Shown here: positions 4,654 to 26,198 of the stretch, one piece after another
Position numbering within the stretch: position 1 is the stretch's first letter
Layout: each line of letters begins with the position of its first letter
Origin: Gemmatimonadota bacterium
GTDB lineage: Bacteria; Gemmatimonadota; Gemmatimonadetes; Gemmatimonadales; Gemmatimonadaceae
DNA length: 26,198 bases
Reading direction: 5' to 3'
Assembly (NCBI GenBank): GCA_031372565.1
Contig: JANMLN010000037.1
Location: 1 to 26,198, forward strand
The notes under the pieces: model-generated
Told to the model about the DNA's origin: nothing
What the model saw: only the letters and a program-made list of their open reading frames with translations
Database searches by the model: none
Made by a program: the position numbers and the translations under genes

Positions 4654-5751
4654 ATGTTCATGCGGATCGCAGCCCTTGTGTGGTGCGCGCTCGCCGGACT
4701 TCCGCGAACTCTGCTCGCTCAAGTGCCGCCGGCCGGGGGTGCCGCTCGCCCGAATGGCGCCGTGAGCGGCGTCGTGCTGGACACGGCAGGGCGTCCCGTG
4801 GCGGATGCGGACATCGTCGTGCTCGGGTCGGCGCGTCGCACGCGGTCCGCGGCCGACGGCCGCTTCGCGCTCCGGAATCTGCCCGCGAGCGACACGGAGT
4901 TCCTCTTCAGGAAGCCCGGGTACGAACCGGCGCGCTTCCGGGTGTCCGTGCCGGCTGGCGGTGACGTCGCCCTGCGCGTCACGCTTGGTCCCGCCGTGCG
5001 CGAGCTCGAAGGGGTGATCGTGATGGCGCAGGTCTTCAATGAAGTTAGGGGCATCATCGTGGACTCTGCAGGCGCCCCGATCGAGGACGTGGAAGTCTCC
5101 ATGCTCGGCGCGCGATTCGTCGCGCGCACCCGCACCGATGGTGCCTTCCTCTTCGTGGACATCCCCCCGGGGCGCTATCTGCTGACGGCGCGAAAGATCG
5201 GGTATCGCCCCCAGCGGCTGTCGGTTGCGATGGAGCGACAGCTTGAGCGGGAGATCACCGTGCGGCTGCGCGCGCTGGCGCAGGGGCTCCCTCCGGTCGA
5301 GGTCACCGCGCTGAGCGGCTTCAGCCCTGCCGACAGCCTTGCCCGCGTCGAGTTCGAGGAGCGGCTGGCGGCCAAGGGACACGAGTCGGACCTCCTCACC
5401 GGCGCGGAGCTCGCCAAGGCAGGCAAGGATCGGCTCGATTTCGCCATCCGTGAGCAGGCGGTTTCATGGGTGAAGGGTGGAGGATCGTATTCTTGCGTGC
5501 TCGTGAACGGCGTTGAACCGCTCGAAGACGACGCCACCTTCCGCCGCCTCAGCAAGATCGACTTTGCGCTTCCACCTGCCGAGCGCTACACGCTGATGAA
5601 GAAGCTGACCGCGGAGCAGGTGGACGCGGTGGAGATCTACGCGTCCGGCCACGAAAGGTCCCGCACGGCGTGCCGCAGGTTTCCGCTCGTCTCGCAGTGC
5701 TCGTGCGCGGCGAATCCGCCGGCGATCGTCGTCCTCTGGCTCAAGCCGTGA
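4654..5751 (+). CDS. Secreted protein with two carboxypeptidase-regulatory-like (CarboxypepD_reg) domains and a C-terminal TonB plug-like segment
   Basis: Signal peptide (RIAALVWCALAGLPRTLLA/Q). Two repeats of G.V.D.AG.P..D..V...G...TR..DG.F....P.......RK.GY.P. C-terminal EQVDAVEIY...AIVVLWLK. The start may be the ATG at 4660. Confidence 0.7.
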   Translation: MFMRIAALVWCALAGLPRTLLAQVPPAGGAARPNGAVSGVVLDTAGRPVADADIVVLGSARRTRSAADGRFALRNLPASDTEFLFRKPGYEPARFRVSVPAGGDVALRVTLGPAVRELEGVIVMAQVFNEVRGIIVDSAGAPIEDVEVSMLGARFVARTRTDGAFLFVDIPPGRYLLTARKIGYRPQRLSVAMERQLEREITVRLRALAQGLPPVEVTALSGFSPADSLARVEFEERLAAKGHESDLLTGAELAKAGKDRLDFAIREQAVSWVKGGGSYSCVLVNGVEPLEDDATFRRLSKIDFALPPAERYTLMKKLTAEQVDAVEIYASGHERSRTACRRFPLVSQCSCAANPPAIVVLWLKP

Positions 5752-6301: not shown

Positions 6302-7774
6302 GTGAACTACGCCAGCCTCTCATCCCAGCGCGACCGGCACCCCGCCTGGCGGCTGCTTGCCTCGCCGCACGCACCACTGGTGGCCAGCTTCCTGCACCAG
6401 GTTTTCGTAGCACCGAACGTGCGCGTGATGAGCGAAGCGGACCTCGCGGCTGCGCTCGACGACGCCCTCTTCGCCCTGCGCGAGCAGATCGGGGCCGACG
6501 CCTACCCTCAGGGTGCGACCGAGTATCTCAACGACTGGGCCGCGCCCGACAAGGGCTGGCTGCGCAAGTTCTACAAGCCGGGCACGGACGAGCCGCAGTT
6601 TGACCTCACGCCAGCCACGGAGAAGGCCCTCGCCTGGCTGTTGTCGCTGACCGAGCGACCCTTCGTGGGTACCGAGTCGCGGCTGCTGACGCTGTTTACG
6701 CTGCTGGAACAGATTGCTGCCGGCACCGAGGCCGACCCGATCAAGCGCGTTGACGACTTGCGCAGGAAACGTGACGAACTGGACGCAATGATCGCGCGCG
6801 TGCTGGCCGGCGATGTGCCGCGGCTTGACGACACCGCGGTCAAGGACCGCTTCCAGCAGTTCCAGCAGCTGGCGCGCGAACTGCTGGCCGACTTTCGCGA
6901 GGTGGAGCACAACTTCCGACAGCTCGACCGCAAGGTGCGCGAGAAGATTGCGCTGTGGGAAGGTACCAAGGGAGCGTTGCTCGACGAGATCATGGGCGAG
7001 CGCGAGGCCATCGGCGACTCCGACCAGGGCCGCAGCTTCCGCGCGTTCTGGGACTTCCTCATGTCCAGCCGCCGGCAGGAAGAACTCTCCGAGCGGTTGG
7101 CTCAGGTCCTCGCGCTGCCCGCCGTCGTGGCGCTCAAGCCCGAGCCGCGGACTCGTCGTGTGCATCACGACTGGCTGGAGGCCGGCGAACACACGCAGCG
7201 CACCGTGGCACAGCTATCGCAGCAGCTGCGCCGCTTCCTCGACGACCGGGCCTTCCTGGAGAATCGGCGCATCCTGGACCTGTTGCACGGCATCGAAAGC
7301 AAGGCGCTCGCGTTGCGCGAGTCGCCGCCTTCGACGTCCCTGATGGCAATCGCCGAGATGGGCGCGGACGTCGACTTACCGCTGGAGCGACCCCTCTTTG
7401 CTCCGAGCACGAAGCCGCGCCTGGCGGAATTGACGCTCCTCATGGGCGACGACGGCACGGACACCGCTCGATTGTTCGACCAGGTCGTCGTGGACAAGAC
7501 ACGCCTCCGCTCGAACGTCCAACACGCCTTGCGCCGTCAACCGCAGATCACGCTGCACGAACTGCTCGATGCCGAGCCGCTGCGGCAGGGGCTGGCTGAA
7601 CTGGTCACCTACCTGGAGCTGGCCCACGCCGGTGACGGCCGCGGCGCTCCCGACGACCTGCGCGCCGTCGTGGACGAGGCCGTGGAGGAACCGATCCGCT
7701 GGCAGGCTCGCGACGCAGCGGGCGAACCTGTGACGCGCGAGGCTCGACTGCCCCGCGTGATCTTCACGCGCTGA
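6302..7774 (+). CDS. jetA: Wadjet JetA (DUF3375, kleisin-like)
   Basis: HPAWRLL.SPHAPLVASFL, YLNDWA..KGWLRKFY, FVGTESRL, SDQGRSFRAFWDFL and GLAELVTYL. First gene of a four-gene coupled operon. Confidence 0.92.
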   Translation: MNYASLSSQRDRHPAWRLLASPHAPLVASFLHQVFVAPNVRVMSEADLAAALDDALFALREQIGADAYPQGATEYLNDWAAPDKGWLRKFYKPGTDEPQFDLTPATEKALAWLLSLTERPFVGTESRLLTLFTLLEQIAAGTEADPIKRVDDLRRKRDELDAMIARVLAGDVPRLDDTAVKDRFQQFQQLARELLADFREVEHNFRQLDRKVREKIALWEGTKGALLDEIMGEREAIGDSDQGRSFRAFWDFLMSSRRQEELSERLAQVLALPAVVALKPEPRTRRVHHDWLEAGEHTQRTVAQLSQQLRRFLDDRAFLENRRILDLLHGIESKALALRESPPSTSLMAIAEMGADVDLPLERPLFAPSTKPRLAELTLLMGDDGTDTARLFDQVVVDKTRLRSNVQHALRRQPQITLHELLDAEPLRQGLAELVTYLELAHAGDGRGAPDDLRAVVDEAVEEPIRWQARDAAGEPVTREARLPRVIFTR

Positions 7775-7778
7775 GATC

Positions 7779-8504
7779 ATGGCCAGACAGGGAGAGACGC
7801 GCATGGACGACGGGCGACACGGGAACGATCCCGCCGAGGCCTCGCCCAGCGCCCTGCCACCGGTGCCTGAGCTGTCGCAGCTGCTGGTGCGCCTGCTCAA
7901 GGGGGTGCTCTATCGCGAGGATGACGAGCGCCTGTGGGCCAGCCTGCTGCGCCTGCAAGCGCGCGTGAGGGAGCAGTCTGCCGTGCTGCTGCTCGATCTG
8001 ATGCTGGACGAAGCCGAGGGCCACGCCTTCCTGAAGAGCCGTCCGGACCAGGACGATTCAGAGGATGCCCCACGCCTGCCGCGACTCGTCGCACGTCGCC
8101 CGCTGTCGTATCCCGTGAGCCTGATGCTGGCGCTGCTCCGAAAGCGCATGGCCGAGTTCGACGCTGGTGGTGGGGACACTCGGCTGGTGCTCGCGCGTGA
8201 TGAGATCGCTGAGCTGGTGCGGGTGTTCCTGCCCGATGCCACGAATGAGGCGCGGATCATGGACCAGATCGACGCGACGATCTCCAAGGTGGTTGAGCTG
8301 GGCTTTCTGCGCCGGCTCAAGACCGTCGCTGGCAACGGACAGGAACGGAGTCACTTCGAGGTGCGGCGCATCCTCAAGACGTTCGTCGATGCCGAGTGGC
8401 TGGCCGAGTTCGACGCGCGTCTGGAAGGCTACCGGACGGCGCTGTCCACTGCTCCGGTCGACGCGACCGGCAAGGCGACGAACCGGGGGGCCGTCGATGG
8501 CTGA
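7779..8504 (+). CDS. jetB: Wadjet JetB (DUF4194, kite-like)
   Basis: LLKGVLYRE, LDEAEGHAFL, PRLVARRPLSYPVSLMLALLRK and FEVRRILKTFVDAEWL. Lies between jetA and the SMC ATPase. Confidence 0.9.
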   Translation: MARQGETRMDDGRHGNDPAEASPSALPPVPELSQLLVRLLKGVLYREDDERLWASLLRLQARVREQSAVLLLDLMLDEAEGHAFLKSRPDQDDSEDAPRLPRLVARRPLSYPVSLMLALLRKRMAEFDAGGGDTRLVLARDEIAELVRVFLPDATNEARIMDQIDATISKVVELGFLRRLKTVAGNGQERSHFEVRRILKTFVDAEWLAEFDARLEGYRTALSTAPVDATGKATNRGAVDG

Positions 8505-11500
8505 GGCACCGCCGCTGGCCCTCGACTTCGTGAGCGACGACAGCCGCGCGGGCTTTCGCCTGCATCGTCTGGAAGTGCTCAACTGGGGCACCTTCGACAA
8601 GCGTGTCTGGCGCTACGATCTGGACGGTCGCAACGGCCTGCTCACGGGCGATATTGGTTCGGGGAAGTCCACGCTGGTAGACGCCATCACCACGCTGCTG
8701 GTTCCGTCCCATCGGGTGGCCTACAACAAGGCGGCTGGGGCCGAAGCCCGCGAGCGCAGCCTGCGCTCGTATGTGCTAGGCCACTACAAGAGCGAGCGCA
8801 ACGAAGTGACCGGGAGCGCCCGCCCGGTCGCTCTGCGCGATGCCTCCAGCTACGCGGTCATCCTCGGCGTCTTTCGCAACGAGAGCTACGGCCAAGTAGT
8901 CACCCTCGCGCAGCTGTTCTGGCTGAAGGATCCGCAGGGACAGCCGGCCCGCCTCTTCGTGGCGACTGAGCGGGCGCTGTCGATTGCCGATGACTTCAGC
9001 GGCTTCGGTAGTGACGTGACCACCCTGCGAAAGAAGCTGCGCACTTCGGGCGCCGATCTGTTCGACAGCTTCCCACAGTACGGGACGTGGTTCCGCAGGC
9101 GGTTCGGCATTGAGCACGAGCACGCGCTCGAGCTGTTTCACCAGACGGTCTCGATGAAGTCGGTGGGCAACCTCACGGACTTCGTGCGCAGCCACATGCT
9201 GGAGCCCTTCGACGTGGGCGACCGAATCACCGCCCTGATTCACCACTTCGAGGATCTGGATCGTGCGCATCTTGCGGTGCTGAAGGCCAAGCGCCAGGTG
9301 GAGCTGCTGTCGCCGCTGGTGGAGGATGGACACCGCCACACGGCGCTGATGACGGACATCCAGCGCTGGCGCGATGGTCGCGACGCGTTGCAGCCCTACT
9401 TCGCCCGCCTCAAGGGTGAGCTGCTGGAGCTGCGGCTCGCGTCGCTCGCGGACGAGGCGACCCGACTCCACACGCAAATCGAGCGCCTCGATGCGCAGTG
9501 CGACGCTCAGCGCACCGAAGTCGGCCGGCTGGAGCGTGCCTTGCGGGACAACGGTGGTGACCGACTTGAGGAGCTGGCCGCAGAGATTCGTCATCGGGAA
9601 GGCGAGAAGGCGCAGCGTCAGACGAGGGCCGATCGATTCAGCGAGCTTCTCGCTCGCATCGACGAGGCGGTACCTGCGGATGAAGAGGGCTTTCTCCGGC
9701 AGCAGGCCGCCATCGGCCAACGTGCGGACGGGTTGCGCGAGCGCATCGCTGACGTGGACAACCGCAAGCGCGAACTGGAGTTCACGTTCGGAAAGGAGCG
9801 CGAAGAGCACGCCGCCTTGACCGAGGAGATCGAGAGCCTGCAGCGACGCCGAAGCAACGTGGACGCCGCCCAGGTCCGCATCCGCGACACGCTGTGCTCG
9901 GCGCTCGGTATCGGGGAGGATGCACTGCCATTCGCCGGCGAGCTCATTCGAGTGCGCGAGGACGAACGTGATTGGGAAGGTGCCGCCGAGCGTCTGCTGC
10001 GCGGATTCGGCCTCGCGCTGCTGGTGCCCGACGCGCACTATCGGACCGTCGCGGCATGGGTCGACCGGCAGCATCTGGGTGCGCGACTGGTGTACTTCCA
10101 TGTCCGGCAGCGGAAGCCTGGACAGGGCACCAGCCTGCACGTGCACTCTCTCGTGCGAAAGCTCGAGATCAAGCCGGATTCGCTACACTCCGGGTGGTTG
10201 GAGCAGGAGATCAGGCATCGCTTTGACGTTGCCTGCTGCGACACGGGCGAGCAGTTCAGCCGCGAGCCCCGCGCCATCACACGCGCCGGTCAGATCAAGG
10301 AGCCGTCTGGCCGGCACGAGAAGGACGACCGCAGCCGCATCGACGATCGCAGCCGCTACGTGCTCGGTTGGAGCAATGCCGAGAAGCTGCGGGCACTCCG
10401 CGACCATCGGGAGCGTCTTGAGGGGACGCTGGCCGCGCTGGGGCAGCGAATCGGCGAGGCACAGCAGGAACGTGGGGAGGTGGACGGTCGCCTGATCACC
10501 CTCGCCCGGCTGGAGGAGTTCACGCGCTTCGCGGAGATGGACTGGATGAGCCTGACGCGCGAGATCGCCGCGCTCACCGAAGAGCGCACGCGACTCGAGA
10601 CCGCGTCGAACACCCTCCAGGAGCTTGGCCGCCAACTGAAGGAGGTGCAGGAGCGGATGGGCGAGGCCGATCGCAGGCGGACCGACGCAGTGGACAAGCG
10701 CGGCCAGGTCCGGGCCAAACGGACGGATGCGCAGGAGATGCGAGACCGGGCCGCTGATACCTGGAATGCCACTCCGTTGGACGACGCGCAGCTCGCGCGA
10801 CTGGATGGCTGGCGTGCAGAGGCGCTGGGCGAGCACCAGCTTTCGGTGGAATCATGCGAAAACCGCGAGAAGGAGATGCGGAAGTGGCTGCAGGATCGGA
10901 TCGACGCGGAGGACCGACGGCTGGCCCGCCTGGCGGAGCGGATCATCAATGCCATGCGAGGATTCAAGGAGGAGTTCAAGGCCGAGACTGTCGAGATGGA
11001 CGTCAGCCTTGCGGCACGGTCAGAGTATGAACGGATGCTGGGCTCCCTAAAGGGCGATGACCTGCCTCGCTTCGAGGCGCGTTTCAAGGAACTGCTCAAC
11101 GTCAACACCATCAACGAGATTGCAGGCTTCAACGCCCAGCTCGCCCGCGAGCGGGAGACCATCCGGGAGCGCGTCGAGCGCATCAACCAGTCGCTCGAGG
11201 CCATCGACTACAACCCGGGCCGCTACATCAAGCTGGTGGCATCGAATAGCCTGGATCCCGAGATCCGCGATTTTCAGCAGGAGCTGCGCTCGTGCACCGA
11301 GGGCGCGACCGGTGCCGCCGATGATCAGTACTCGGAAGGCAAGTTCCTGCAGGTCAAGGCCATCATTGACAAGTTCCGCGGACGCGAAGGACTGTCGGAC
11401 GCCGACCGGCGGTGGACTGCCAAAGTCACCGATGTGCGCAACTGGTTCCTCTTCTCGGCCAGTGAACGCTGGCACGCCGATGGTGCCGAGTTCGAGCACT

Positions 11501-11871
11501 ACTCGGACTCGGGCGGCAAGTCGGGGGGCCAGAAGGAGAAGCTCGCGTATACCGTGCTGGCGGCGAGCCTGGCGTACCGCTTCGGGCTGGAATGGGGCGC
11601 CGTGCGCTCGCGGTCATTCCGCTTCGTGGTGATTGACGAAGCCTTCGGACGCGGTTCGGACGAGTCGGCGCAGTACGGGCTGAGCCTGTTCCAGCGACTC
11701 AATCTGCAGCTGTTGATCGTCACGCCGCTGCAGAAGATTCACATCATCGAGCCCTTCGTGGCCAGTGTCGGCTTCGTTCACAACGAGGGAGGGCGTGATT
11801 CGCGACTGCGCTGCCTGACGATCGAGGAGTACCGGGCACAGAAGGATGCGGTGGGCGGAGTCACAGCATGA
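8497..11871 (+). CDS. jetC: Wadjet JetC, SMC-family ATPase (1124 aa)
   Basis: True start placed at ATG 8497, overlapping the jetB stop and in frame with track ORF 8167. Has LEVLNWGTF, Walker A GDIGSGKST, long coiled coils, hinge region LPFAGELI, signature KSGGQKEK and Walker B VVIDEAF. Confidence 0.93.
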   Translation: MAEAPPLALDFVSDDSRAGFRLHRLEVLNWGTFDKRVWRYDLDGRNGLLTGDIGSGKSTLVDAITTLLVPSHRVAYNKAAGAEARERSLRSYVLGHYKSERNEVTGSARPVALRDASSYAVILGVFRNESYGQVVTLAQLFWLKDPQGQPARLFVATERALSIADDFSGFGSDVTTLRKKLRTSGADLFDSFPQYGTWFRRRFGIEHEHALELFHQTVSMKSVGNLTDFVRSHMLEPFDVGDRITALIHHFEDLDRAHLAVLKAKRQVELLSPLVEDGHRHTALMTDIQRWRDGRDALQPYFARLKGELLELRLASLADEATRLHTQIERLDAQCDAQRTEVGRLERALRDNGGDRLEELAAEIRHREGEKAQRQTRADRFSELLARIDEAVPADEEGFLRQQAAIGQRADGLRERIADVDNRKRELEFTFGKEREEHAALTEEIESLQRRRSNVDAAQVRIRDTLCSALGIGEDALPFAGELIRVREDERDWEGAAERLLRGFGLALLVPDAHYRTVAAWVDRQHLGARLVYFHVRQRKPGQGTSLHVHSLVRKLEIKPDSLHSGWLEQEIRHRFDVACCDTGEQFSREPRAITRAGQIKEPSGRHEKDDRSRIDDRSRYVLGWSNAEKLRALRDHRERLEGTLAALGQRIGEAQQERGEVDGRLITLARLEEFTRFAEMDWMSLTREIAALTEERTRLETASNTLQELGRQLKEVQERMGEADRRRTDAVDKRGQVRAKRTDAQEMRDRAADTWNATPLDDAQLARLDGWRAEALGEHQLSVESCENREKEMRKWLQDRIDAEDRRLARLAERIINAMRGFKEEFKAETVEMDVSLAARSEYERMLGSLKGDDLPRFEARFKELLNVNTINEIAGFNAQLARERETIRERVERINQSLEAIDYNPGRYIKLVASNSLDPEIRDFQQELRSCTEGATGAADDQYSEGKFLQVKAIIDKFRGREGLSDADRRWTAKVTDVRNWFLFSASERWHADGAEFEHYSDSGGKSGGQKEKLAYTVLAASLAYRFGLEWGAVRSRSFRFVVIDEAFGRGSDESAQYGLSLFQRLNLQLLIVTPLQKIHIIEPFVASVGFVHNEGGRDSRLRCLTIEEYRAQKDAVGGVTA

Positions 11872-13079
11872 GCTGGACGACGGCGGCGGACCTGCGTTCG
11901 CAGGTTCAGCGCTTGTGGGACAACGGCGAGCTGTTGCGCGCCGCGGTTTCGGATGCCGTCGGTTGGCCCGTCCGCCTGACCCTCAAGTCACCAATCGCAG
12001 CCGATCTGTCCGACCGGTTCGAGGCGGTGCGCCAATGGGTGAGTGCCGTGGCCGACACCCCGCATGTGCGGATCGAGTGGCGGGACCGGAACCATCGGGT
12101 TCAGGGGAAGCAACGCCTTCCAGCGGCTATCTGGGTTGACACGTTGCCGGCGGCCCTGGCCTTCATCGGCATGGAGCGCGACGTCGAGCGCTTCGAAGTG
12201 CTGTGGCAGCGGACGGCTGCGGTACACCCAGCGCTGCTGACGTGGATGTCGAGACACCCGCTTCAGGGCCTCGCCCTGGCCGATCGGTGGGACCGGCTGC
12301 TGGCCGTCGTCTCGTGGCTGCAGGCTAACCCCCGTCCGGGGGTGTACCTGCGACAGGTGGATGCGCCGGGAGTGGACAGCAAGTTCATCGAGGCCCACCG
12401 AGGCGTGCTGGCCGAGCTACTGGACCTGGTGCTGCCGCCCGAGGCAATCGACTCGAGCGCGAAAGGGGCGTCGCACTTCGCCCGGCGCTATGGCTTCCGA
12501 GACAAGCCGGGGCGGCTTCGGTTTCGATTGCTCGATCGCGCGATGCCCAGCTTGCCTGGCTGCGAGGGGTTGCCCGACATCACGGTCGACGCGGCCAGCT
12601 TTGCGGCCCTCGTGCTACCGATCGAGCGGCTGTTCATCACCGAGAACGAGACCAACTTCCTCGCCTTCCCGGCGGTGGCGCGGGCTATCGTCGTCTTTGG
12701 TTCCGGCTACGGGTTCGAGAGCTTGGCAGGCGCCGCTTGGCTCGATCGCTGTCGAGTGTACTACTGGGGCGACGTTGACACACACGGATTCGCCATCCTT
12801 GACCAGCTACGAGCCTACCTTCCGCACGCGGCGTCGTTCCTGATGGATCGGGAGACGCTGCTGGCGCATCGTGCGCAGTGGGGTGAGGAGCCCGAGCCCG
12901 CTCGCCACGACTTGAGTCGGCTGACGACTGAAGAGGCGGAGGTGTACGACGATCTCAGATTGGATCGCCTTCAGCGTGGACTGCGCCTGGAACAGGAACG
13001 GGTCGGATTTGGCTGGGTTCGCGCCCGCCTGAGCGCCCTCGCCCCGGAAGCGCCCGACGGACCACCCGAGCGCGCGTAG
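11868..13079 (+). CDS. jetD: Wadjet JetD, Toprim nuclease (DUF3322 + DUF2220)
   Basis: ATGA overlap with jetC. Has YLRQVDAPGVDSKFIEAHR, Toprim motifs ITENETNF and YWGDVDTHG (DxD), and RLEQE. Confidence 0.92.
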   Translation: MSWTTAADLRSQVQRLWDNGELLRAAVSDAVGWPVRLTLKSPIAADLSDRFEAVRQWVSAVADTPHVRIEWRDRNHRVQGKQRLPAAIWVDTLPAALAFIGMERDVERFEVLWQRTAAVHPALLTWMSRHPLQGLALADRWDRLLAVVSWLQANPRPGVYLRQVDAPGVDSKFIEAHRGVLAELLDLVLPPEAIDSSAKGASHFARRYGFRDKPGRLRFRLLDRAMPSLPGCEGLPDITVDAASFAALVLPIERLFITENETNFLAFPAVARAIVVFGSGYGFESLAGAAWLDRCRVYYWGDVDTHGFAILDQLRAYLPHAASFLMDRETLLAHRAQWGEEPEPARHDLSRLTTEEAEVYDDLRLDRLQRGLRLEQERVGFGWVRARLSALAPEAPDGPPERA

Positions 13080-22530: not shown

Positions 22531-23094
22531 ATGACGACGGCCCAGCCCGTAATGACAGACCCGGCCGAGGCGGATCAGGAGCTCATCAATCGGATTCTCG
22601 CCGGAGAGTCCGAGCTCTTCTCCACTCTCATCCGCCGGTACAGCGATCCCCTCTACCGTCATGCGCTGGGCATGACCGGGTCGCCTGACGTTGCCGAGGA
22701 TATCCTCCAGTCGTCCTTCATCAAGGCGTTCAACCACCTCGCGGAAGTGCGCGGCCGGTTTGACGCCTGGGTGTTCCGGATCGTGGCCAATGGCTGCAAG
22801 GACTGGCTCAAGAACATCCGGCGTACCCACCTCAGTTACGATGAGGACGATCAACCGTCTTCTTTTGCGACCCCCGAAGAAGATCTCGACCGGACAGAGC
22901 TCCGGACCGATCTCGATCGGGCCCTGGCGCACCTCGCGCCGAGTTTGCGGGAAGCCTTCGTCATGAAGCACGTCGAAGGGCGGTCGTACGAGGAGATGGC
23001 GGAGCTGCTGCACACGACGGTCGGAGCGCTGAAGATGCGCGTGCATCGGGCACGGGAAGCGCTGCAGGCCCTGTTGGAGGAGAAATACGCGTGA
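22531..23094 (+). CDS. ECF (sigma-70 group 4) RNA polymerase sigma factor
   Basis: Region 2 AEDILQSSFIKAF...FDAWVFRIVANGCKD and region 4 REAFVMKHVEGRSYEEMAELL..TVGALKMRVHRAR. Confidence 0.93.
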   Translation: MTTAQPVMTDPAEADQELINRILAGESELFSTLIRRYSDPLYRHALGMTGSPDVAEDILQSSFIKAFNHLAEVRGRFDAWVFRIVANGCKDWLKNIRRTHLSYDEDDQPSSFATPEEDLDRTELRTDLDRALAHLAPSLREAFVMKHVEGRSYEEMAELLHTTVGALKMRVHRAREALQALLEEKYA

Positions 23095-23393
23095 ACACGA
23101 ATCGTGACCTGACCGAGGGCGCTCGTCCGGCGACGCGCCCGACCACGGAGACCACCCCGCGCGCCCAGCTGGCCGACGGCGACGCACTCGAGCCGCGCCT
23201 GACGAGCCCTGCGCTGCACGCCTGGCTCGACGGCGAGATCACCGACGCGTCGCTCGCGGTCAGCGAGCGCCCGCAGGTGATCGCCATGTGGAAGGCCCTC
23301 GGCAGCGACGCCGAGAAGCTCCGCCACATGACGACGCCCAAGAGTGTCGAAGCCATCGTGATGTCCAAGATCCGCGAGACCCGCAGCGCGTAA
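23091..23393 (+). CDS. Putative small soluble anti-sigma factor
   Basis: GTGA overlap with the sigma gene. LHAWLDGEI resembles the anti-sigma domain helix, and there is no transmembrane segment. Confidence 0.6.
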   Translation: MNTNRDLTEGARPATRPTTETTPRAQLADGDALEPRLTSPALHAWLDGEITDASLAVSERPQVIAMWKALGSDAEKLRHMTTPKSVEAIVMSKIRETRSA

Positions 23394-24137: not shown

Positions 24138-25544
24138 CTAGATGTGAATGCTGCGCCCCATCACGGCGAGCGCGGCTTCCTTGACGGCTTCGTTGAGCGT
24201 CGGATGCGAGTGCACCGTGATCCCGATGTCCTCGCTCGACCCGCGCCACTCCATCGCGAGCACGGCCTCGGTGAGCAGGTCCGCCGCGTTCGCGCCGATG
24301 ATGTGGCAGCCCAGCAGTTCGTCGGTGGTGGCATCAGCGATGAACTTCACGAAGCCCTGCGTTTCGGCCATGGTGCGCGCGCGGCCGTTGGCGCTGAACG
24401 GGAACTTGCCAACCTTGTACGCGCGCCCTTCGGCCTTGACCTCGTGTTCGGCCATGCCGCAGCTCGCGATCTCGGGCCACGTGTACACGACGCTCGGCAT
24501 CGTACGGTAGTGCATCTCGCTGTGGTGGCCGGCAATCACCTCGGCCGCCACCACGCCCTCTTCCTCCGCCTTGTGCGCGAGCAGCTTGCCGCCGACCGCG
24601 TCACCAATGGCGAACACACCGTCGAGGTTGGTGCGCATCTGGTGATCGACCACGATCTCGCCACGCTTGCCGAGTGCGAGACCCAGCGCAGCGGCATCGA
24701 TGCCGTTGAGCGCGGGCTTGCGGCCCACCGACACGAGCACGTAATCGGCGTCGATCGATTGCGCGGTGCCGTTGGTGTCGACGTGCACCTGCACGCCGCT
24801 GGATGAGACGTCGGCGCCGGTCACTTTGGTGCCGGTCATGAGCGCGAGGCCCTGCTTCGTGAAGATCTTCGTCGCTTCCTTGATCACATCCTCGTCGTTG
24901 CCGGGGAGAATGGTCGGCATGAACTCGACGACGGTGACCTTGGCGCCCAACCGGCGCCAGACGGAGCCGAGCTCGAGACCGATCACACCGCCGCCGATGA
25001 CGACCAGATGCTTGGGGACCTCGGGGATCTTGAGCGCGCCGACGTTCGAGAGGACGCGCTGCTCATCGAACTTCAGGAAAGGCAGCTCGACCGGCACCGA
25101 GCCGGTGGCGAGGATCACGTGCTTGGGTGTGTACGTCGTGACGGTACCGTCGGCGGCGGTGACGTCCACCACACGATTCGCCTTGAGCGTGCCGCGCCCC
25201 TTGGCCCACGTGATCTTGTTCTTCTTGAACAGGAACTCGACCCCCTTGGTGTTCGCGGCGACGACGTCGTCCTTCCGCTTCATCATGGTGGGGAGGTCGA
25301 GCTCGGGGCTGACCTTGACGCCATGCTCGGCGGCGTGGAGGCGCGCGAACTCGAAGTGCTCCGAACTCTGCAGGAGCGCCTTGCTGGGGATGCAGCCGAC
25401 GTTCACGCAGGTGCCGCCGAGCGTCTTGTCGAGCTCGACGCAGACCGTGGCGAGTCCGAGTTGGGCCGCGCGGATGGCGGCGACGTAGCCACCAGGGCCG
25501 CCGCCGATGATGAGGAGATCGGGGGTCAGGTTGGCGTCAGGCAT
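24138..25544 (-). CDS. lpdA: Dihydrolipoyl dehydrogenase (E3)
   Basis: IIGGGPGGYVAAIRAAQLG, redox disulfide GGTCVNVGCIPSK, NAD-binding IGGGVIGLE, LAHKAEEEG and HSHPTLNE. Confidence 0.97.
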   Translation of the reverse strand: MPDANLTPDLLIIGGGPGGYVAAIRAAQLGLATVCVELDKTLGGTCVNVGCIPSKALLQSSEHFEFARLHAAEHGVKVSPELDLPTMMKRKDDVVAANTKGVEFLFKKNKITWAKGRGTLKANRVVDVTAADGTVTTYTPKHVILATGSVPVELPFLKFDEQRVLSNVGALKIPEVPKHLVVIGGGVIGLELGSVWRRLGAKVTVVEFMPTILPGNDEDVIKEATKIFTKQGLALMTGTKVTGADVSSSGVQVHVDTNGTAQSIDADYVLVSVGRKPALNGIDAAALGLALGKRGEIVVDHQMRTNLDGVFAIGDAVGGKLLAHKAEEEGVVAAEVIAGHHSEMHYRTMPSVVYTWPEIASCGMAEHEVKAEGRAYKVGKFPFSANGRARTMAETQGFVKFIADATTDELLGCHIIGANAADLLTEAVLAMEWRGSSEDIGITVHSHPTLNEAVKEAALAVMGRSIHI

Positions 25545-25624
25545 GGCGTGAATCTAGCCGGGGCTGCGTGAGATTGGTTGTGTGGTTCTCTGGAGGGGTA
25601 TGGAGATTGGGAGAGGGGCGGGGG

Positions 25625-25658
25625 GGGAGACACAGAGCACACAGAGAATCACAGAGGG
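25625..25658 (+). repeat. Left inverted-repeat arm flanking the GxxExxY gene
   Basis: GGGAGACACAGAGCACACAGAGAATCACAGAGGG, 30/34 identical to the reverse complement of 26024-26057, with three CACAGAG units. Confidence 0.85.
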
Positions 25659-25664
25659 ACTGCC

Positions 25665-26033
25665 ATGTTGGATGCGCGTACGGATCGGATCATCGGGGCG
25701 GCGATTGCGGTGCACCGGGGGTTGGGGCCCGGGTTGCTTGAGTCGGCGTATGTGGGGGCGCTCGCGGTGGAACTCGCCGCGCGCGAGATCCCGTTTCGGC
25801 GCGAGGTCGCGCTGCCGGTCGTGTATCGCGGCCAAGCGCTGCACGTGTCGTATCGCCTCGACGTCCTGGCGTTCGAGGCGGTGGTGGTCGAGATCAAGAG
25901 CGTCGAAGCCATCCACCGCATCCACGTCCAACAGACGCTCACTTACATGCGGCTAGGCCAATTCCCCGTCGGCCTGCTATTGAACTTCAATGTCCCCATT
26001 CTGAAAGACGGCATCACCCGCCTCTCTCTGTGA
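25665..26033 (+). CDS. GxxExxY protein (PD-(D/E)XK nuclease-like)
   Basis: ATG 25665 with GAGGG upstream. IIGAAIAVHRGLGPGLLESAY, YRLDVL...VVVEIKS, Q.LTYMRL...VGLLLNFN...LKDGI.R. Confidence 0.92.
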   Translation: MLDARTDRIIGAAIAVHRGLGPGLLESAYVGALAVELAAREIPFRREVALPVVYRGQALHVSYRLDVLAFEAVVVEIKSVEAIHRIHVQQTLTYMRLGQFPVGLLLNFNVPILKDGITRLSL

Positions 26034-26057
26034 CCCTCTATGTGCTCTGTGTCTCCC
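26024..26057 (-). repeat. Right inverted-repeat arm flanking the GxxExxY gene
   Basis: CTCTCTGTGACCCTCTATGTGCTCTGTGTCTCCC overlaps the gene's TGA stop and is the reverse complement of the left arm. Confidence 0.85.
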
Positions 26058-26198
26058 AACCCCGCCCCACACCCCAAAAAAAAACCCCTCCCAACAGCTC
26101 AAACCACAAACATCGCAAACGGCTATTAAAACAAATAATTCACCCCCAACAAAAAAAACACCCAAAACATAAAATACATAAACAGGATATAGTACGAA

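Follow-up and report, generated by a model that had tools for sequence, protein, structure and literature searches.

A GxxExxY gene near the end of contig JANMLN010000037.1 from a Gemmatimonadota bacterium (a single contig of 26,198 nt and ~65% G+C, analysed whole and hereafter called the window) is enclosed by two inverted arrays of the 7-nt word CACAGAG. The gene and its two arms form a discrete cassette, and such arms are a trait of the GxxExxY family. Across the family, the words of both arms change in concert from one element to the next, and the encoded protein and the arms are both under purifying selection.

The cassette is read here, tentatively, as a self-recognising unit of nuclease and repeat that acts on DNA. 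The nuclease would recognise the word arrays, both those flanking its own gene and those of gene-less hairpin copies elsewhere in the genome, and would act on them as DNA, allowing arms and gene to persist and occasionally spread as a unit. Copying would be by a cut-and-copy route like that of homing or by maintenance like that of REPIN-RAYT systems, which consist of REP sequences and REP-associated tyrosine transposases (PMC3116915, PMC3337134, PMC5581495, bioRxiv 10.1101/2022.05.22.493013). The gene, which has no evident promoter of its own, would usually rely on read-through from a host operon transcribed in its sense direction.

Inverted word arrays around GxxExxY genes

Species-representative genomes were scanned with a 16-sequence profile, which matched at least 601 stretches, 571 of them encoding relatives. 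The best 80 loci were kept, amounting to 682 kb of locus DNA. Including that of the window there were 83 gene copies, a partial second copy in locus L029 being excluded from the count, and 80 copies were examined after three with a flank shorter than 60 nt had been dropped. The survey, made at the DNA level, left out the closest protein relatives (P0002-P0008, 66-73% identity). The hosts belong to Acidobacteriota, Chloroflexota, Planctomycetota, Verrucomicrobiota, Pseudomonadota, Bacteroidota, Cyanobacteriota, Gemmatimonadota, Myxococcota and other phyla, and archaea are represented by Methanothrix and Methanophagales contigs (L048, L050, L055). The arms accompany the gene in at least a dozen phyla plus archaea.

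An earlier note on this DNA had proposed that flanking inverted repeats be sought in homologues, and had named their absence and a lack of covariation as refuting; neither outcome was seen. An inverted repeat with a score more than 6 above every one of 20 shuffles and with at least 16 pairs was found around 51 of the 80 gene copies, and the words of the arms covary. The median score was 44, as compared with 24 for the shuffle maxima and 19 for a same-orientation control. At least two clustered and correctly oriented words were present on both sides in 49/80 copies, on the left only in 14, on the right only in 10 and on neither side in seven, and only 4/80 had no word cluster in any orientation. 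By this strict criterion 31 of the 80 copies lack one or both arms, but the strict word pattern undercounts, as the right arm in the window was scored absent owing to its degenerate middle unit.

In the usual design the left arm reads (a/t)TTCAC-C[AG]C-N-[AG]AG, with the word repeated about three times at a spacing of 8-9 nt and followed after ~15 nt by the open reading frame (ORF), and the right arm is the mirror image of this array with GTGAA at its outer end. The consensus of the word is CRCNRAG. Three units are the mode (36 left and 31 right arms of 49), with two to four units occurring, and the start-to-start spacing of the words was 8 nt in 109 cases and 9 nt in 65. The arms lie close to the gene, with a median distance of 15 nt between left arm and estimated start and of 4 nt between stop and right arm. 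An outer cap (a/t)TT(C/A)AC is kept whatever the word, TTCAC and GTGAA being the commonest ends. The design is also seen in the AT-rich genome of the cultured and RefSeq-annotated Bacteroides finegoldii, where a cassette with the ends TTCACCACAGAGG...gene...CTCTGTGGTGAA lies between radA and the gene for an FAD-dependent protein, all three being co-directional.

The window protein matches PF13366 (PDDEXK_3; E 2.6e-37, 128.2 bits against a cut-off of 22) and TIGR04256 (GxxExxY; E 4.8e-38, 130.1 bits against a cut-off of 35). Its motif residues are G23-L-L-E26-S-A-Y29, D66 and E76-I-K78. The residues of the catalytic E/D/ExK motif (E26, D66, E76 and K78) are invariant in 83/83 copies, and so are G21, G23, Y29, N107 and F108. 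An AlphaFold2 model of the protein (pLDDT 95) has the order alpha-alpha-beta-beta-beta-alpha-beta, and its best matches among PDB structures were Cas4 SSO0001, lambda exonuclease and Hjc, all of them weak (E 7e-3 and worse, TM 0.4-0.5). The predicted fold is thus restriction-endonuclease-like and resembles generic PD-(D/E)XK cores only. A search of the PDB for a solved relative by sequence profile gave no match at E up to 1. The family is large, with 7,883 of 8,000 scored candidates from a 90%-identity collection and 15,810 representatives of 50%-identity clusters matching at E up to 0.001. In a superfamily survey of 2012, PF13366 is given as a family of unknown function with clades that mix bacteria and archaea (PMC3424549).

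As judged from its sequence, the protein is a catalytically intact and probably dimeric nuclease of ~120 aa. The hint that the single-domain protein may act as a dimer comes only from fused relatives. The best-scoring representatives of the family are two-domain GxxExxY fusions of 240-295 aa (P0121-P0133 and others), in which the second domain has no ExK motif in the three inspected (P0121, P0122 and P0123). The predicted ends of some proteins (MHHRGTEGTE..., ...VLCAPSASSAS and ...SSVVSSVSS in P0009, P0010 and P0122) resemble translated arms and are probably due to mis-set starts or read-through.

The ratio of nonsynonymous to synonymous substitution rates (dN/dS) was 0.04-0.18 in the six of 15 pairs with unsaturated dS, the misaligned pair L048/L055 being ignored, which points to strong purifying selection on the protein. 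The arms of loci L015 and L046 differ at a few positions only, although dS between the two genes is 1.15, and hence the arms are under selection too.

Homogeneity of the words

The word differs between elements, the variants being CACAGAG, CGCAGAG, CACGGAG, CACAAAG, CACGAAG, CGCAAAG, CACCAAG, CGCCAAG and others. In 36 of 49 elements the predominant word on the left is the reverse complement of the predominant word on the right, whereas 10,000 permutations gave 9 such elements on average and 19 at most. Among 152 paired units from 56 elements, word position 2 is occupied by 92 A-T and 40 G-C pairs, position 4 by 67 A-T, 31 G-C and six C-G pairs, and position 5 by 109 G-C and 22 A-T pairs. For six Terriglobia elements RNAalifold predicted a long-range stem of 30 pairs, and one and the same word position shows GC-to-AU double changes in each of the three units.

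This covariation is not pair-specific, each element carrying its own word six times. In 36 elements, the likeness of units at the three variable positions is 2.56 for paired units, 2.55 for non-paired units and 2.56 for units of the same arm, as compared with 1.68 between elements. The spacers behave otherwise and are identical in 27/72 paired, 11/72 crossed and 9/72 same-arm comparisons. As the words are homogeneous while the spacers vary, the constraint falls on the word, as expected for a factor that reads sequence. Given that archaeal hosts are included, no factor other than the encoded protein is known to accompany the arms. This, together with the conservation of word and end cap across bacteria and archaea while synonymous sites saturate, argues that the words would be read by the protein.

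The words cluster on the protein tree, with 36 changes as compared with a mean of 49 in shuffles (0/200 as low), and the tree mixes host phyla within its clades. Words ending in AAG occur together with L102 in 10/10 elements (9/66 of the others) and with a residue other than T6, which is otherwise near-invariant, in 9/10 (5/66 of the others). Co-evolution of word and residue is inseparable here from shared descent, with only two independent pairs on supported branches, and in the approximately unbiased (AU) test a single clade of the elements with ...AAG words was not rejected (p 0.357).

Operon context, strand of the mismatches and gene-less copies

The direction of the cassette was compared with that of its neighbours, called crudely as the longest flanking ORFs; in high-GC DNA the calls include errors, most of which run against the trend. 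The cassette runs in the same direction as both neighbours in 45 of the 72 cases with two called neighbours and opposite to both in five, the remaining 22 being mixed. Many cassettes are located within operons. Several sites recur, their genes being named by eye from the translated flanks: trpE/trpG (L012, L060, L069), carA/carB (L006, L013) and, in seven Terriglobia contigs, a site between genes for a TrmH-like methyltransferase and a rarA-like protein (L014, L015, L027, L046, L047, L067, L077). At the last of these, four contigs have the word CACGGAG and the other three CACAGAG; the occurrence of two words at one vertically inherited site indicates that all units switched together. Loci L041 and L045 encode close relatives of the proteins from this site but lie elsewhere in their genomes. 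Their similarity extends from TCACC to GGTGAA and a few bases beyond it, and thus arms and gene move as a unit. In L012 and L052 two gene copies occur within 10 kb, and L012 has both a CACAGAG and a CACCAAG element.

In the twelve syntenic relatives (seven, three and two per site) the orientation of the gene relative to its neighbours is always the same. This tells against an alternative offered in the earlier note, namely a segment flipped by recombination between the arms, in favour of which only the presence of inverted repeats around a gene can be cited. A scan of 18 large ORFs of the window revealed no recombinase, integrase or transposase, in line with the earlier observation that the window has no transposase or recombinase. 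Inversion is scarcely credible as an explanation, and membership in the class of invertible segments is ruled out on the same two grounds.

The strand of imperfect pairs was assessed by counting G-T and A-C mismatches, the strand of the GxxExxY gene being taken as the sense strand. In the window three mismatches (25642/26040, 25647/26035 and 25648/26034) are A/C or C/A and correspond to G-U pairs on the minus strand, on which basis the earlier note had suggested a minus-strand bias; the fourth (25657/26025) is G/T and corresponds to a G-U pair on the plus strand. Being transitions throughout, with a 3:1 split that lacks significance, the four mismatches give no evidence of strand bias in this copy. 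Across the family the signal weakly favours the sense strand of the gene, and the window copy belongs to the minority leaning toward antisense wobbles. A permissive alignment gave 90 sense and 59 antisense G-U pairs (p 0.014). In a strict alignment of 39 elements the numbers outside the words were 37 and 15 (p 0.003), and 22 elements leaned to sense and eight to antisense (p 0.016). Inside the words no strand preference was seen (9 vs 7 in the strict alignment of 39 elements, 32 vs 35 when anchored on units). Stand-alone hairpins between co-directional genes lean the same way as the cassettes, not significantly (14 sense vs 9 antisense).

These counts bear on a second reading, possible although somewhat less likely than a unit acting on DNA and compatible with it, in which the arms are an RNA processing stalk or insulator. 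They would pair in the sense transcript of the operon like the stems around 16S and 23S rRNA or rRNA intervening sequences and would be cleaved either by the RNase III of the host or by an RNase activity of the GxxExxY protein itself, giving a stabilised monocistronic mRNA and leaving the flanking genes functional. Gene-less hairpins would then behave like REP elements on mRNA. The 45 to five excess of co-directional cassettes, their tight packing in operons (trpE/trpG, carA/carB, radA and the next gene), the excess of sense G-U pairs and the predicted long-range stem are all in favour of such a stalk. Variants in which a complete hairpin stands on each side of the gene, instead of the gene being nested in one (L008, L078, L080, L081), would yield the same protected mRNA ends, and rRNA intervening sequences whose loop contains an ORF are a precedent (PMC4990558).

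However, the G-U preference is missing inside the words, and outside them it could be due to deamination of the coding strand during transcription. Structure alone leaves unexplained both the conservation of the word and of TTCAC from Bacteroides to archaea and the equal likeness of non-paired and paired units. The copy in the window lies outside any co-directional operon. Most archaea are not known to have an RNase III, which likewise counts against a stalk.

Gene-less copies of the hairpin occur, 29 arm pairs less than 80 nt apart being found in the 682 kb, with stems of ~30 bp and loops of 3-78 nt; arm pairs with longer loops also occur. Tandem arrays are present in L063, L056, L078 and L034, and in L063 (2014-2242 and 3349-3520) and L056 (5409-5770) they consist of complete hairpins with regular spacers of 20-21 nt. 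The hairpins mostly share the word of the arms of the neighbouring gene, as read by eye and uncounted. Two loops retain traces of gene ends, as expected of internally deleted derivatives. A hairpin loop in L078 keeps 20 nt of the 3' end of a gene (blastn-short), and ~16 nt of a loop in L014 resemble the 5' end of the neighbouring gene in an alignment (12/16 identical, a weak case). Among 25 hairpin loops searched for gene remnants, one was positive by blastn-short and none by blastx, and 23/25 showed nothing. No second element was found within the 26-kb window. The suggestion of the earlier note that the cassette is mobile or selfish gains plausibility from the traces in these loops and from the paralogues at different sites.

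Several copies are rearranged. In L001 and L002 (~5366-5447) there is no left arm, and the gene is followed by a right arm, 11 nt and a left arm, an order that is a circular permutation of the usual one, with the outer ends GGTAAATATCACC abutting. Locus L029 (4880-5600) contains a full cassette with, ahead of it, another left arm plus the first ~8 codons and, behind it, a C-terminal part of the gene (residues 80-122) that has a right arm of its own; by its sequence this is a nested insertion or a partial triplication. In L081 (2330-2965, plasmid 1 of Gemmatirosa kalamazoonensis), one of three matching places in the record, the homologue matches in two pieces and may be frameshifted; it lies between an upstream right arm and, on the downstream side, a complete hairpin of the CGCAGAG type. 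In L073 (9005-10140) the arms, of the CGCAGAG type on the left and of the CTCTGYG type on the right, enclose a 363-aa ORF that is not GxxExxY and appears HEAT-repeat-like by eye.

Hairpins and tandem arrays without a gene, the bracketing of another ORF in L073 and the 31 gene copies lacking one or both arms would suit a passive association. In that case the hairpins would be REP-like and serve the host as mRNA stabiliser, attenuator or site for a nucleoid protein, and GxxExxY genes would lodge nearby, their protein being unrelated to the arms. This is unlikely, as the occurrence of arms and gene together across at least a dozen phyla and archaea would require co-transfer and joint selection. 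The clustering of words on the protein tree also argues against it, as do the positions of the arms, which adjoin the start and stop signals of the gene or overlap with them.

A number of observations weigh against the reading of the cassette as a self-recognising unit acting on DNA. Binding and cleavage of the words by the nuclease remain putative, and transposition by such an enzyme alone would be unprecedented, since PD-(D/E)XK enzymes form no covalent DNA intermediate. Slippage of tandem units combined with selection for pairing could homogenise the words without any specificity of the protein, and the link of ...AAG words with L102 and non-T6 may go back to one event in a common ancestor. 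The sense G-U excess outside the words fits a role in RNA at least as well. No target-site duplication was found, direct repeats of at least 4 nt at both ends occurring in 5/49 elements as compared with a mean of 2.6 and a maximum of six in controls, and inspection by eye revealed none either. There was no homologue in 50,697 phage records, and of 72,556 plasmid records only 8 contained one; these were all of the non-mobilizable type, and six of the eight were larger than 400 kb. This rarity, together with long vertical persistence at fixed operon sites, opposes frequent mobility. Finally, the gene in the window is divergent from lpdA, and expression by read-through therefore does not apply there.

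The window copy and comparison with known systems

The features of the window copy are collected in Table 1. The earlier description of a 122-aa GxxExxY gene between CACAGAG inverted repeats holds. The repeat search gave arms of 45 nt that are 82% complementary and 363 nt apart, and in the pair-by-pair check (i+j=51682) the core arms form 31/35 Watson-Crick pairs. The earlier placement of a ribosome-binding site in the left arm and of the stop codon in the right arm also agrees with the table, the putative ribosome-binding site lying 5 nt from the ATG of the gene. The total of five CACAGAG words in the window is not above chance (3.2 +/- 1.9 in shuffles, 22/100 of which had at least five), and thus only the clustering of the words is informative.

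Table 1. Features of the GxxExxY cassette in the window.
Feature	Position	Strand	Basis or remark
Left arm of inverted repeat	25615..25659, core 25625-25659	+	Repeat search and pair-by-pair check
CACAGAG words, left arm	25631-25637, 25640-25646, 25650-25656	+	
G-rich outer extension	5' of left-arm words	+	Part of left arm
Shine-Dalgarno-like GAGGGA	25654..25659	+	Made by innermost left word; putative function
GxxExxY / PDDEXK_3 gene, 122 aa	25665..26033	+	ORF and profile matches
Stop codon TGA	26031-26033	+	Inside right arm
Right arm of inverted repeat	26023..26067, core 26023-26057	+	Overlaps last three codons and stop codon
Right-arm words	CTCTGTG 26026-26032 and 26045-26051; degenerate middle unit CTCTATG 26036-26042	+	
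C-rich outer extension	3' of right-arm words	+	Part of right arm
Weak outer extensions	25592..25623 / 26060..26091	+	Repeat search; 72% complementary, doubtful significance

A long-range stem that loops the gene out, as the earlier note had supposed, is predicted for both strands of the window copy, which fold far better than shuffles (z -7.5 for the plus and -9.4 for the minus strand, 0/100 shuffles as good), as well as for the relatives folded with RNAalifold. The same note had this stem form on the minus strand, stabilised by G-U pairs, with the cassette lying antisense in the lpdA transcript. The slightly better fold of the minus strand and three of the four core mismatches would agree with this, but the fourth mismatch points the other way, and the relatives show the opposite wobble tendency and run in the sense direction relative to their neighbours. 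Moreover, the lpdA-like gene occupies 24138-25544 on the minus strand, and the cassette is divergent from it, starting ~50-80 nt upstream of the lpdA start at 25544. A promoter giving an antisense transcript would need to lie more than 500 nt upstream in the A/C-rich end of the contig, where no promoter-like site was found. An antisense position in the lpdA transcript is accordingly very improbable. The search for sigma-70-like promoters and terminators at the window cassette was negative, and the contig ends 140 nt past the right arm.

Those last 140 nt (26058-26198) are A/C-rich, almost without G and T, and low in G+C, with two imperfect direct repeats (34 nt, 71% identical) and a further TTCACC at ~26139; a degenerate neighbouring element, a promoter region and an assembly artefact are the candidates. 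Elsewhere in the window, four consecutive plus-strand ORFs at 6302-13076 match DUF3375, DUF4194/MksE, an SMC-like ATPase (AAA_29 and SbcC Walker B) and DUF3322 with JetD_C, which, as judged by these matches, is the gene order of the Wadjet (JetABCD) anti-plasmid system. At 22531-23393, also on the plus strand, a gene for a sigma factor of the extracytoplasmic function (ECF) type (Sigma70_r2 and r4_2) is followed by an overlapping 100-aa ORF (23091-23393), in the position of an anti-sigma factor and putatively encoding one.

The cassette belongs to none of the known classes with which it was compared. The closest is REPIN-RAYT, with features of homing endonuclease genes and of intervening sequences. 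As in REPIN-RAYT systems, inverted copies of a short repeat flank a single small enzyme gene, inheritance is mostly vertical, purifying selection acts on the enzyme, and each enzyme lineage has its own variant of the repeat; dispersed hairpin doublets of the repeat between genes, as in REPIN-RAYT, are seen in related loci. In contrast, the enzyme is a PD-(D/E)XK nuclease and not an HUH/Y1 (IS200/IS605-like) transposase, the gene is usually nested inside one hairpin and does not stand beside complete ones, and several gene copies per genome are possible (L012, L052). The repeat is an array of 7-nt words, unlike the single REP palindrome, and the distribution spans many phyla and archaea. Membership is ruled out, the sole Pfam family matched being PF13366 and not that of an HUH/Y1 transposase.

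The likeness to rRNA intervening sequences lies in an insert of ~400 nt with stem-forming inverted repeats and a small ORF in the loop, and in that these sequences are regarded as selfish and are looped out at the RNA level; an example is the one in the 23S rRNA of Coxiella burnetii, which encodes S23p in its loop (PMC4990558). The cassette lies instead between protein-coding genes, its ORF is of another family, and its arms are conserved word arrays and not lineage-specific helix extensions. No rRNA match was found at the locus or in 14 related loci, which rules out an rRNA intervening sequence.

With pairs of autonomous transposons and miniature inverted-repeat transposable elements (MITEs) the cassette shares terminal inverted repeats, gene-less copies with the same ends, two of which keep traces of gene ends, and tandem and partially duplicated copies. 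It differs in that neither a transposase, of the DDE or another known type, nor a target-site duplication is present, and in positions that are strongly conserved in operons. A transposon or MITE is ruled out by the lack of a transposase in the element and in the 18 window ORFs scanned and of a target-site duplication in 49 elements.

Like a homing endonuclease gene, the free-standing nuclease gene lies exactly between the two halves of a palindromic site, gene-less and thus 'empty' palindromes occur in the same genomes, and the protein tree does not follow host phyla. Unlike in homing, there is no intron or intein, the arms offer only ~30 bp of homology per side, and the gene persists vertically for long under strong purifying selection; cleavage of empty sites would be hypothetical here. 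Integron gene cassettes have a single attC at the 3' side with GTTRRRY cores and a nearby IntI integrase. They are ruled out, as arms stand on both sides with TTCAC and GTGAA as their commonest ends and no integrase was found among the window ORFs scanned.

Rfam 15 gave no family at the locus (one chance-level match, E 1.3), and for 14 related loci only generic microRNA-like hairpin matches below threshold. No description of the repeats was found in the literature searched by family name, accessions and arm sequences, a search that did not extend to subscription journals or database comment fields; the listed matches to arm sequences were all primers. A distinct word-reading nuclease system is conceivable, if doubtful. 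At a similarly low level of confidence, GxxExxY nucleases and CRCNRAG hairpins may form a pan-prokaryotic self-recognising partnership, the PD-(D/E)XK counterpart of REPIN-RAYT. In such a partnership a minimal dimeric nuclease would read evolvable arrays of 7-nt words, changes of the word would be matched in the protein (e.g. at residues 6 and 102), and host operons would depend on or tolerate the cassettes.

The packaging of the gene with a conserved and co-varying repeat gives PF13366/TIGR04256 a first concrete and testable substrate hypothesis, and the arms probably explain odd N- and C-terminal extensions of predicted proteins. If the protein reads the words, it would be a new minimal system for the recognition of nucleic-acid sequence and, with its repeats, a second and independent long-lived partnership of enzyme and repeat in prokaryotic genomes. 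The hairpins inside operons may shape mRNA processing in hosts ranging from gut Bacteroides to soil Acidobacteriota and methanogens.

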